Assembly: GCA_964016885.1 (NCBI GenBank)
Contig: OZ024747.1
Coordinates: forward strand, 77,004,001 to 77,068,000
DNA: 64,000 bases
Origin: Eledone cirrhosa
Taxonomy: Eukaryota
Direction of reading: 5' to 3'
The translations under genes and the position numbers were made by a program. Positions within the stretch are counted from its first letter, which is position 1. Every line of letters begins with the position of its first letter. Of this stretch, positions 47,331 to 51,641 are shown in pieces. The notes beneath the pieces are model-generated. The model was not told the origin of the DNA and did not search any database. It saw nothing but the letters and a program-made list of their open reading frames with translations.

Positions 47331-47863
47331 TACTAGAGCTAAATAAATAAATAAATAAATAAATGTATCATTGATACGTTCATTCAACGGATGTCCAACT
47401 ATCTATTTCCTCTCTCTATATATATCTCTATCTGTTTCTTTACATGAAGTTCTTCTCTTTATCTATCTTTCCATCTCTCTATTTTGTTGCATGCATTTCT
47501 TCTTTTTCTTCTTTTTCTTCGTTTTCTTTCTTTCTTTCCTTCTTTCCTTCTTTCTTTCTTTCTTTCTTTCTGTTTACAATTTTTCACTGCCAAATCAACT
47601 TTTTCAAATACAAGTCGATGTTGAACGGTATGTCAAATCTATTTATCTATAAAACTGTCTATATTGTATTTTGTCTGAGGAAGGCATAACATATTGTTAA
47701 TATGATATCCCTGAAATATATATAATGAAATAAATATGGTTTTATAAATATAGTTTCCATTTATTTAATATCGTAAATATACTCCAAATACTTGTTGAGT
47801 GCTTTTATATCAGTTATAAATATTTACTAGTTGTAACCCAACAATTTAAATATAACTTTCCAT
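47331..47863 (+). repeat. 5' pLTR
   Basis: Matches 51108-51641 except within the (TTTC)n tract. Confidence 0.95.
47661..47737 (+). ncRNA. Minimal type I hammerhead ribozyme in 5' pLTR
   Basis: UAUUUUGU-CUGAGGA-AGG c AUA a CAUAUU guu AAUAUG a UAU c CCU-GAAA-UAUAUA-UA^AUGAAAUA. Confidence 0.8.
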
Positions 47864-47910
47864 GTATCTTGCTCCAATACTGTTGAGCGCTTTATATTAT
47901 AACTGAAAAA

Positions 47911-49494
47911 ATGGAATTCTTTAAGATTACTTCCTCTTTAAAAGACATACCTCTACCTAGAAACAAAGACTTTATAAAACAATTAATAGATAAATCTGAC
48001 TCTTTTATAAGGAGAATCAGGTGGCGAGCATTCCACTTTGATAAATCTAATATAAATGAAAATGTCTCGGACTTAAACAAAGTTTTCAAATCTAAAAGAA
48101 ATCCACCCCCTAACAAACTTTTATCTGACTTTGAAAACGATATAATCTCTATCATACAAGGGGTCAAATTCAAGAGAAACTTCAAAGGCCAGGAATATCT
48201 GAAAGGCATTAAGGATAATATTGAGAGCTTAGAGAAAACTGAGAAGATCTTAGTGAAATCTGACAAGACCAACAACCTCTATGGAGTGCAGAAAGACATG
48301 TATAATGGCCTCATACTGAAGGAACTGAGGAAAAAGTACAAGGTAGCAGATAAGGCCGAGCTTGAGAAAATGAATGTCGAAGCATCTTGTATAATGCACG
48401 AGTTGGAAATTGAGAACAGAACACAACCTTTCGTGCCCAGGAAACCGAAGATCAATATGAAAGATCACAAAAGGAATTTTGAAAATGACTTGCCAGTTAG
48501 ATTGATCGCACCATCAAAATCGGACCTGGGCAAATTAAGCAAAAACATTCTTGACAGGGTGATACAGCAAATTAAGAACTTGGATTGTTTACCTAACCTG
48601 AGCTTGTGGAAGGGAACTGGAGAGGTTGTTGAGTGGTTTAAGCAAATTAAATATAACAATAATAATAAGTTTATTCAACTTGATATTGCTAACTATTATT
48701 CTTCTATTACCCCTAATCTACTAAATAAGGCACTAAATTACGCATTCAAACATACAGACCTAACTAGCAATGAAATGCACATTATATTATCGGCTAGGAA
48801 AATATTGATAGAATTTAATGACCAACTATGGACCAGAGCAGATAGAGATAGCAATTTTGACATTACTATGGGATCATCCGACTCAGCTCAGGTAACTGAC
48901 CTTGTGGGCTTATTTTTAATCAATTCGCTACATAGGAAAATACCTGGTACTACCGGAGGTTTATATAGAGATGACATGCTTTTACTTATTGATAATAATA
49001 ACTCTGAACTAAATAGAAGAAGAAAACAAATTACACAATTTTTTAATTACTTTAATCTTAAAATAGAAATTGAGAACAACCATAGAATAGTCAATTTCCT
49101 AGATATAACATTAAATCTCAACACATGTCTTCACTATCCTTTTCACAAGTTGAATGAAAACTTAAACTATGTCAGCTTTAACTCTAACCACCCCAGATCT
49201 GTCAAAAACACTATAGTAAACTCTGTTCAAAAACGTATCTCTAGAATCTCGTCTAATAGAAAGATTTTCGACGAAAAAGCCCAGTACTACAATGAAGCGT
49301 TAGCTAGAGCAGGATATAGTGATAAGATTATGTACATAGATAATGATAGACAAACTAAACAAAATAACAACTATTTTAATTACGGCAACAACCTTAACAA
49401 CTATAATAGAAAGCATTACAATAATTCCAAAAGCCAAAAAAGAAATAGAACTAGGAACATAATATGGTTTGCCCCCCCCCCCCTTTCTCACTAA
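47911..49494 (+). CDS. Penelope-like reverse transcriptase (N-terminal part of single ORF)
   Basis: KSDKT, PKINMKDHK, PVRLI, LDIANYYSSI, ITMGS, YRDD, VNFLDI, SNHP motifs; frame breaks in the C12 run at 49472-49483. Confidence 0.92.
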   Translation: MEFFKITSSLKDIPLPRNKDFIKQLIDKSDSFIRRIRWRAFHFDKSNINENVSDLNKVFKSKRNPPPNKLLSDFENDIISIIQGVKFKRNFKGQEYLKGIKDNIESLEKTEKILVKSDKTNNLYGVQKDMYNGLILKELRKKYKVADKAELEKMNVEASCIMHELEIENRTQPFVPRKPKINMKDHKRNFENDLPVRLIAPSKSDLGKLSKNILDRVIQQIKNLDCLPNLSLWKGTGEVVEWFKQIKYNNNNKFIQLDIANYYSSITPNLLNKALNYAFKHTDLTSNEMHIILSARKILIEFNDQLWTRADRDSNFDITMGSSDSAQVTDLVGLFLINSLHRKIPGTTGGLYRDDMLLLIDNNNSELNRRRKQITQFFNYFNLKIEIENNHRIVNFLDITLNLNTCLHYPFHKLNENLNYVSFNSNHPRSVKNTIVNSVQKRISRISSNRKIFDEKAQYYNEALARAGYSDKIMYIDNDRQTKQNNNYFNYGNNLNNYNRKHYNNSKSQKRNRTRNIIWFAPPPLSH

Positions 49495-50129
49495 ACATTA
49501 AAACCCACATCGCTAAACTATTTTTTAAAGCTCTTGATAATCGCTTCCCTAGAACACATAGGTATCACTCAATTTTCAATAGACATACTATAAAATTAAC
49601 CTACTCATCCACCAAAAATTTAGCACAAAATATTAATAGAATAAATAATAGGAACTTAAAACCTAGCGATAATAGCATAAATAATATACAAGTTAACAAA
49701 TGTAACTGTAGAGATAGATCTAAATGTCCGTTAAATAACAACTGCTTAGTTAAAAATATAATATACAATTGTAATGTTAAAACTGACTCTAATTCTTTTA
49801 ACTACGTCGGTTCCACATCGACGGAATTTAAACTTCGATATAATAACCACAAGAATTCTTTCACAGATCCAAGCAAAAAATCTTCAACAGCACTATCAGG
49901 CGTACTCTGGCAACTTAGGCTAGATAACGTTAGATATTCGACGGCTTGGAATATAGTCTCAAGAGGAATTCCTTTTAATTCATCCTCTGAGACATGTGAC
50001 CTCTGCGCAGAGGAGATATTCTTTATACTAAAATCTAAAAATTCCCTTAATCTACGGACAAATTTATTCAGTTGCTGCAAACATAGATTAAACTTAACTT
50101 TTAAATATAAATTTAAATTTAAAACGTAG
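49464..50129 (+). CDS. Penelope-like linker plus GIY-YIG endonuclease (frameshifted continuation)
   Basis: PPFSLNIKT, IFNRHTIKLTYS, CNCRDRSKCP..C, NIIY..YVGST..FKLRYNNH, CDLC..E, CKH. Confidence 0.9.
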   Translation: MVCPPPPFSLNIKTHIAKLFFKALDNRFPRTHRYHSIFNRHTIKLTYSSTKNLAQNINRINNRNLKPSDNSINNIQVNKCNCRDRSKCPLNNNCLVKNIIYNCNVKTDSNSFNYVGSTSTEFKLRYNNHKNSFTDPSKKSSTALSGVLWQLRLDNVRYSTAWNIVSRGIPFNSSSETCDLCAEEIFFILKSKNSLNLRTNLFSCCKHRLNLTFKYKFKFKT

Positions 50130-51107
50130 TATATTTAGTTTGATTTATAATTATTTGGGAAACTAGCCGATAAATCTTTCGATTTCTTCTTTTTATTCTT
50201 CTTTTTATTTTTATTTTTATTTAAACATTCTTCATGAAAAATTAAACTACCCTAAAAGTTGATGCTCCAAATATTTCGAATAAACGTTACACTAGATAAA
50301 CTTCTATATTAAATATAAGAACACATGTAGACCAAATGGGCATCCTAAACTTTTTGAAATGATTTTTGCTAGACGCGATTTGATAAATAATCTTTAGCTT
50401 TATCTGCTTTCGACTCTGATGCTTATAATGAACTTGGCAATATATTGTCAATTAATTTTTGATGGGTTGATCTTTGTGGTCGATTTGCGTGGCATATTAT
50501 GTTTCTATTATGTTTTTATTTTTATTATTGTAATATTTTCTAATATTTTTATTTTTAATATGTAATATTTTTTAGTTTTCTATTTTATTATTATTTATTA
50601 TTATTATTATTATTTTTTGTTTTTGTTTCTGATATTTTTTATTAATATATTGAAATCTGTTCTCTATTTCTGCTTGATAGATAATCATGTAGAGTAAAGA
50701 CAAGAATAGTATTGTTAAAATTAATATAGACTCTATATATATGTGTATATATATACACATATATGTATACTTAAATTTTTATAGCACAATGAGAATGTTC
50801 TCCGTGTGAAATAGGGGTTTGCAGAGTTGATCACGTAAATTCACATCGATGTTTGGAGTTATCATATAAACATATGAATTTTTAAAACTAAACATAAGAT
50901 CATTACTTTTCACACATTATGGATACGTGTCTCATTCAGGAATACTGATATTTACATTATAGTGCCTGGTTTTTATACATACTAATACTTCTACATTAAA
51001 ACATAGGGTTTTTAAATTTTGCCTCGCCTATGTCTGGTTACTTTTCATTTTTCTCTCTATGTAACGGCTGTTTTCTTTCCTAACCACATATATCTCCCTT
51101 ACATTAA

Positions 51108-51641
51108 TACTAGAGCTAAATAAATAAATAAATAAATAAATGTATCATTGATACGTTCATTCAACGGATGTCCAACTATCTATTTCCTCTCTCTATATAT
51201 ATCTCTATCTGTTTCTTTACATGAAGTTCTTCTCTTTATCTATCTTTCCATCTCTCTATTTTGTTGCATGCATTTCTTCTTTTTCTTCTTTTTCTTCGTT
51301 TTCTTTCTTTCTTTTCTTTCTTTCCTTCTTTCTCTCTTTCTTTCTTTCTGTTTACAATTTTTCACTGCCAAATCAACTTTTTCAAATACAAGTCGATGTT
51401 GAACGGTATGTCAAATCTATTTATCTATAAAACTGTCTATATTGTATTTTGTCTGAGGAAGGCATAACATATTGTTAATATGATATCCCTGAAATATATA
51501 TAATGAAATAAATATGGTTTTATAAATATAGTTTCCATTTATTTAATATCGTAAATATACTCCAAATACTTGTTGAGTGCTTTTATATCAGTTATAAATA
51601 TTTACTAGTTGTAACCCAACAATTTAAATATAACTTTCCAT
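51108..51641 (+). repeat. 3' pLTR
   Basis: Direct repeat of 47331-47863. Confidence 0.95.
51439..51515 (+). ncRNA. Minimal type I hammerhead ribozyme in 3' pLTR
   Basis: Identical to 47661-47737. Confidence 0.8.

Follow-up and report, generated by a model that had tools for sequence, protein, structure and literature searches.

The window analysed here, 64,000 nucleotides of Eledone cirrhosa contig OZ024747.1 (assembly GCA_964016885.1, forward-strand positions 77,004,001 to 77,068,000), carries on its plus strand a Penelope-like element (PLE) at 47331-51641 that is bounded on both sides by (TA)n tracts (47112-47330 and 51642-51697), so the insertion in (TA)n proposed in an earlier sequence-only reading of this DNA stands. 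A 5'-truncated partial copy upstream, whose 5' end shares an ATA microhomology with the target, forms the 5' pseudo-long terminal repeat (pLTR; 47331-47863), and the 3' pLTR occupies 51108-51641. The two are near-identical, as first noted: two substitutions and one indel separate them, all within a (TTTC)n tract. The coding region is held in two reading frames, one for the reverse transcriptase (RT; 47911-49494) and one for a linker and endonuclease (49455-50129). Its RT part (47911-49471) carries RWR, DKT, motif B MGSSDSAQ and YRDD and is predicted to adopt a telomerase-like RT fold; a run of 12 C (49472-49483) follows, and then the linker and C-terminal GIY-YIG endonuclease (49484-50129), with CxCx5C at 49701-49727, IIY/YVG, the residues R, H, E and N, CxxC and CxH. 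The unique 3' untranslated region (UTR; 50130-51107) is unusually long and is shared by other copies of the family. The element itself is ordinary for a described clade, and the weight of the finding lies on a short bulged hairpin found in and beside its pLTRs.

The element is almost certainly a Hydra-clade PLE, a new family in a known clade, because every motif listed for that clade in PMC8557442 was found and the RT tree agrees. The listed traits are RWK, DKT, loss of GxKF/Y, a CxCx5C linker, absence of CCHH, a C-terminal CxxC plus CxH, no insertion-in-fingers domain (IFD), canonical hammerheads and (TA)n targets. SDKT occupies RT residues 117-120, so that DKT (118-120) does replace DKG; DK[TS] occurred in 89 of 90 near-full-length matches and DKG in none of the 90. 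RWR, with K changed to R, fills the RWK alignment column, and the GVKF that follows it (RT residues 83-86) falls in a column without a conserved G, so GxKF/Y is not conserved. No IFD is present, the spacing from DK to motif B being 202, compared with 206-209 in canonical-type and 237-244 in Naiad-type RTs. In the endonuclease frame CNCRDRSKC (CxCx5C) precedes the GIY-YIG at residues 83-91, its cysteines C83, C85 and C91 are invariant, and the linker lacks a Cx2-5CxxC motif. The interval from IIY to YVG contains one Cys and no pair of them, in keeping with the reported lack of the usual CCHH. The C-terminal CxxC and CxH are invariant in the endonuclease alignment (C181, C184, E187, N199, C208, H210), as are Y104, Y117, G119, R128, H132, E187 and N199 across 28 endonuclease sequences.

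Structure models agreed with these assignments where sequence searches returned little. The endonuclease model matched I-TevI (Z 9.2, rmsd 2.2, 88 aligned), T4 EndoII (Z 7.6) and UvrC (Z 6.4), and Foldseek with the same model gave no match at E<=0.001. For the RT model, the top three structural matches were all telomerase RTs (TERTs), the best at E 1.8e-9. Pfam recognised neither protein domain of the element nor any in six homologs, a PDB sequence search returned nothing beyond a weak match to a retron RT (E 0.016), and no relative was found in viral contigs.

The sequence-only reading had named the Hydra clade and proposed RT phylogeny as a check, and the tree placed the query with Hydra-type RTs, with outgroups of Neptune, Poseidon and Naiad type. 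Among 45 rows the query fell within the DKT/RWK group (100/100) and in a 7-row subclade (100/99), with the Argonauta protein P0005 as nearest neighbour (95/75); 12 Hydra-type rows, 2 bacterial rows and 4 rows without a parsable core were left out. Approximately unbiased (AU) tests on 22 rows rejected grouping with Neptune, Poseidon or Naiad (p 7e-5, 4e-9 and 2e-4). The outgroups are contaminant contigs whose clade labels were assigned by motif, and long branches meet at the root. It is very improbable that the element comes from one of these other clades, although its 3,778-bp unit exceeds the '<3 kb' usual for Hydra elements (PMC8557442) and Nematis, Chlamys, Athena and Coprina are not labelled groups in the tree: the AU tests reject all three placements, DKG, CCHH and Cx2-5CxxC are all lacking, and the DK-to-motif-B spacing falls short of the Naiad range. 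Neptune or Penelope/Poseidon membership was ruled out by the absence of both DKG and CCHH, and Naiad membership by the absence of both an N-terminal endonuclease and an IFD. Weighing on the other side, the tree holds no published reference sequence, Hydra or other, and the tie to published families consists of short motifs and by-eye comparison.

Two side observations concern PLE distribution. A Hydra-type profile matched 5,052 cluster representatives at E<=1e-30, including many fragments and some sequences whose Hydra identity is unchecked, and the clade seems much more extensive than the 27 families in File S1 of PMC8557442. Many prokaryote genome assemblies (L001-L008, L022, L035, L041, L060-L097, L175-L196) carry eukaryotic PLE contigs of Hydra, Neptune, Poseidon and Naiad types, which look like host contamination; one metagenome-assembled genome has pieces of all four.

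The assembled ORF is broken by a frameshift at the C12 run, a break absent from the sequence-only reading. A C run 5 bases shorter, which unites both ORF parts in one frame, occurred in 170 of 357 raw reads in sequencing run X15 and at depths of 95/111 in run X4 and 20.9/24.5 in run X5; run X1 speaks against this, giving the shorter form only 44.6 of 28,720 depth. The break is probably private to the assembled copy, by real slippage, or an assembly error. Programmed frameshifting at the C run was ruled out because relatives read through that point in a single frame.

Sequencing runs also bore on the age of the family. Thirteen runs share some of the stretch (highest share 0.62 of its words), and four of the 17 listed, three labelled organism A and one organism B, were compared over 47570-51270, each covering 29 of 30 bins; run X6 and seven runs with shares of 0.06-0.13 were left out. 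Most family reads were 90-99% like this copy, and at 11 or more sites the copy departs from nearly all run sequence compared. Among the 40 variants listed (429 more were found), 27 lay in the ORF and 18 of these were synonymous, against 0.33 expected (p 3.5e-4), an excess that fits purifying selection on the source lineages. The sequence-only reading had taken the near-identical pLTRs as a sign of recent activity; the insertion is indeed young, with pLTRs differing only in the microsatellite tract, but the copy is frameshifted as assembled and the family is older and diverse. Depth in the bin 47694-47817 was 19 to 42 times that of the deepest ORF bin in every run compared, a ratio that is not a copy number, and the lack of coverage at 51166-51270 in each of the four was taken as masking. 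Molecule ends at 47846, which coincide with a TTAA site in a restriction-site-associated DNA (RAD) library, were taken as a probable restriction artefact.

The two hammerheads reported earlier, 3778 nt apart from core to core, were recovered as type I hammerheads of identical sequence, one at 47667-47732 (core 47675, predicted cut after 47724) and one at 51445-51510 (core 51453, predicted cut after 51502), with a long stem II and a palindromic stem III. None of 5,000 shuffles of the pLTR yielded a three-stem hammerhead; Rfam did not detect them, its matches in the stretch being chance microRNA-type hits in microsatellites. The insertion terminus lies 138 nt past the second predicted cut. A linear cut-to-cut RNA could template at most these 138 nt of the insertion, and the template was therefore an uncut read-through RNA or a circle.

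A possible though doubtful account gives the hammerheads the leading part: they would excise the 3,778-nt unit, as the sequence-only reading had suggested, the unit would be circularised, and the RT would start inside the circle and run for more than one lap, thereby making the pLTR. Intact cores 3,778 nt apart, stem II sequences that vary among relatives with pairing kept, and a palindromic stem III suited to dimer cleavage all favour it, as does the circle model proposed in PMC4209133, and it is compatible with a start-setting hairpin as well as with the other hairpin roles weighed below. A linear excised unit cannot, however, give an end 138 nt beyond the second cut, and excision by itself does not account for the insertion. 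The monomer hammerhead fold is also poor (-3.4 compared with -8.6 kcal/mol for the minimum free energy (MFE) fold), and isolated hammerheads folded no better than shuffles (z 0.51). For the anole Poseidon PLE, ribozyme cleavage was dispensable in vitro, with ribozyme mutants inserting as usual, and RNA-seq placed no ends at the cut (PMC11167929); metazoan PLE hammerheads are of low activity in PMC4209133. When insertions starting at the ribozyme cut were sought, 13 of 19 matches started at contig ends. The hammerheads are probably weak or dimer-dependent and not what sets insertion ends. Another hammerhead-bearing 3' fragment with the same palindromic stem III lies on the minus strand at 32430-32600 and ends in (TA)n.

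Downstream of each hammerhead is a hairpin of the pattern GCUC-stem-YY-GAGC-AC, with a one-sided 2-nt bulge on its 3' side. Copy 1 (47781-47802) has an A-U outer basal pair and recurs in the 3' pLTR at 51559-51580, within the 'tail'; copy 2 (47871-47890) finishes 20 nt before the ATG. Both are present in the MFE fold, and 47725-47915 folds with z -1.84. We gathered 85 Hydra loci, 41 of which have an endonuclease end and a strict hammerhead, and in 28 of these 41 the hairpin lay within 110 nt after the cut, compared with 0.065 expected from shuffles; the other 13 comprised 6 with a (TA)n run instead, 5 that were too short and 2 with neither. It also preceded the ORF start in 42 of 46 Hydra cases, whereas 186,718 nt of 26 PLE loci from other clades (L077, L078 and L108 excluded for nested Hydra pieces) contained none. 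By eye, the published consensi Hydra-2_Amil, Hydra-1_Ajap and Hydra-2_Ajap carry the same hairpin, Hydra-1_Crog has a GCCC/GGGC version, and the Hydra-1_Ajap consensus starts 2 nt before a hairpin (PMC8557442).

The stem covaries. A covariance model found 86 matches across the window plus the 85 Hydra loci, and a single one among 47 other loci, beside a Hydra RT fragment; this model (R1) retains four of the six pairs and is out of register, which makes its E-values approximate. The 86 matches gave 71 distinct hairpins. The basal stem had served for selection and the apical pairs alone form the test: pairs 1 to 3 were Watson-Crick in 69/71, 51/69 and 36/43 cases, against shuffle means of 37.2, 18.8 and 12.0 and slid controls of 8, 16 and 11. 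The fourth apical pair showed no covariation (12/32, not significant). A description of this hairpin was not found in the literature searched, though figures, supplements, Repbase notes and subscription papers could hold one, and the terms 'hairpin' and 'stem-loop' are absent from the main text of PMC8557442.

Insertion ends fall beside these hairpins. The long 3' end of this insertion maps 4-9 nt upstream of hairpin copy 2, and a short 3' end common in the family lies at or just before 47781, where copy 1 begins, 57 nt past the cut; in run X15, 5,290 reads pass into (TA)n behind 47781, and X1 and X5 show the identical end. The G at 47864 corresponds to an A at 51642, a difference expected if a (TA)n primer had paired with AUGUAU via one wobble. 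For 9 of 42 (TA)n-ended segments a related continuing copy was available, placing the last shared base at -13, -8, -6, -5, -4, -4, -3, -2 and -2 from a hairpin (by eye, the two at -2 are -4 and -6). Eight of these nine mappable ends thus fall within -9..-2, a window that holds 16% of TA sites, and TAT/ATA peaks at -7 from the hairpin (18/37, compared with 0-3 at -25..-15).

Other insertions in the window also pair a short with a long arm. At 38993-39456 a perfect head-to-head palindrome (arms 178/178 identical, centred near 39180) represents a subfamily that is 86% like the element's pLTR and keeps intact hammerheads; its arms terminate in (TA)n, one at the short site and one at the long. An inverted pair from another hammerhead family at 33036-33900 (cores 33121 on the minus and 33737 on the plus strand) likewise has one short and one long arm, carries the same hairpin with an AA bulge, and encloses a 65-bp tail-only piece of a third family (~33413-33473). 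That third family also forms a palindrome at 35340-35525, folded back 5 nt upstream of the hammerhead core and bearing the A-U hairpin version; its short end, at -13, breaks the end-position rule. Separately, L078 contains at 200-1600 a Hydra insertion with inverted RT-endonuclease pieces abutting at residues 650/652, as in twin priming, which adjoins a tail-only fragment and sits between two Neptune-type copies in (TA)n.

We consider it probable that the element as a whole is a recent Hydra-clade insertion of more than unit length, frameshifted, that started at an internal site set by the hairpin. The narrower claim that the hairpin positions internal RT initiation is one we favour by a modest degree, going by its sequence, and we lean to about the same extent towards the generalisation that all Hydra PLEs carry a module, consisting of a UA-rich primer pad and a GCUC/GAGC hairpin bulged by 2 nt on its 3' side, that fixes the RT start, with tandem modules giving alternative 3' ends and hence the PLE 'tail'. 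In this scheme the RT-endonuclease protein would be supplied by an intact family member, its GIY-YIG would nick the (TA)n target, and it would bind the bulged GCUC/GAGC hairpin within the RNA. The nicked (TA)n 3' end would then pair with the UA-rich pad ~4-9 nt upstream of the hairpin, where internal reverse transcription would begin. Two hairpins would provide two start sites, with the stretch between them as the optional 'tail'; two hairpins per element and two matching family 3' ends would in this way explain the 'tail'. For this copy, synthesis would have started at hairpin 2, passed through both intact hammerheads on an uncut read-through RNA or a circle, and halted after ~4.3 kb, with the junction to (TA)n made via the ATA microhomology. 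If so, both ends of the target could prime on a single RNA that carries two modules and so produce inverted pairs of a short and a long arm, of which the window holds three, and the 20-nt hairpin would be a portable start signal for the Hydra RT.

Several points weigh against a start-setting hairpin. The evidence from Hydra elements is all sequence-based, and the Hydra loci are related, so that counts are not independent and the covariation counts are inflated. The covariation derives from a motif-anchored script, and RNAalifold on the model-made alignment A4, with its 5' strand out of register, gave 0 pairs. A continuing partner existed for only 9 of the 42 TA-ended segments, one mapped end lies at -13, and the -9..-2 window was picked after the data were seen. 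The Hydra-1_Obim consensus shows no clear hairpin copy by eye (PMC8557442). Finally, in 32 of 42 cases only 13-31 nt separate the end of the last hairpin from the ATG, a position that fits a role in translation.

That last point supports reading the hairpin as a 5' UTR translation element, for example on uncapped ribozyme-cut RNA, with 3' ends clustering there merely via the UA-rich stretch. We regard this as unlikely: upstream hairpin copies 60-90 nt further from the ATG mark ends too, the TAT/ATA peak sits at a fixed distance from the hairpin, and the end window contains only a small share of TA sites. Less likely still is that the motif acts as DNA, as a site for the endonuclease or the Zn-finger linker, with the two ends arising as cleavage or resolution products. 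In earlier work cited in PMC11167929 the Penelope tail was required for endonuclease recognition, tails have been attributed to endonuclease-mediated resolution (PMC8557442), and the apical stem has few G-U pairs, a single one at each of positions 1 to 3, all of which would suit a DNA site. A one-sided 2-nt bulge and a stem that varies yet stays paired suit a single strand over a duplex, however, and short-ended insertions have no copy of the motif at all and end in (TA)n.

A 39-bp inverted repeat flanks the whole insertion, its left arm at 47073-47111 on the plus strand being 38/39 identical to the reverse complement of the right arm (51698-51736, minus strand, outside the right (TA)n tract). 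The arms score 26, against a maximum of 9 among the window's 71 TA-rich tracts scored singly, and their sequence has no further occurrence within the window. The 3' end of the cDNA may have paired with the self-complementary (TA)n of its own primer strand and copied the right flank before it joined the left; R2 has been described as snapping back onto cDNA or onto target close by (PMC11371274). Alternatively, the element may have inserted into an older palindrome. A separate 277-nt inverted repeat (45092-45651, 92% complementary) has another copy at 53339-53486, and we take its end to resemble an octopus short interspersed element (SINE) tail.

PLE RTs are the sister group of telomerase and initiate synthesis at internal sites of their RNA, and how the 'tail' arises is a matter of debate. 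The in vitro Poseidon study (PMC11167929) did not identify an RNA feature that determines the start, and a covarying structure of 20 nt, present across the clade at a constant distance from insertion ends, is a precise, testable candidate for such a determinant. The hairpin is also a short diagnostic of Hydra ends that Pfam and Rfam miss. The family 3' segment is far deeper than the ORF in each run compared and the window contains four further hammerhead-bearing insertions in (TA)n; such fragments may therefore be a sizeable unannotated repeat class in the host group.

Compared with the Hydra clade of PMC8557442 (e.g. Hydra-1_Obim, Hydra-2_Amil, Hydra-1_Ajap), the element has the same C-terminal GIY-YIG, DKT, RW[KR], CxCx5C and CxxC plus CxH, likewise lacks CCHH and an IFD, and shares the canonical type I hammerhead and (TA)n target. 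It differs in its 3,778-bp unit and pLTRs, and its CxH-to-hammerhead distance is 1,368 nt, compared with 77-551 in 41 loci. Hydra-1_Obim belongs to another family, with motif B MGAYDSAD in place of MGSSDSAQ and different hammerheads. The best named homologs are Argonauta hians proteins, 39% and 35% identical. Argonauta hians P0005 and P0007, together with P0003, P0004, P0006 and P0120, form the one subclade with the query; its proteins share the SAQ motif B, mostly have a long linker before WFxPP, are 35-45% identical to the query and are annotated as hypothetical or GATA-zinc-finger-like, not as PLE. P0007, an Argonauta Hydra RT, is labelled GATA zinc finger domain-containing protein 14-like by its source, a likely misannotation.

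The Anolis carolinensis Poseidon element PAc belongs to a CCHH-type clade, unlike the query, and 96 nt of Fig. S1 of PMC11167929 show no GCUC/GAGC motif by eye. Its in vitro behaviour is nonetheless similar, with RT initiation at two internal sites that delimit the tail, an AT-rich target and a pLTR hammerhead (PMC11167929). PAc initiates inside its ORF, at an AC-rich stem-loop and without target homology, whereas the ends here map to UA-rich pads of the 5' UTR that share microhomology with (TA)n.

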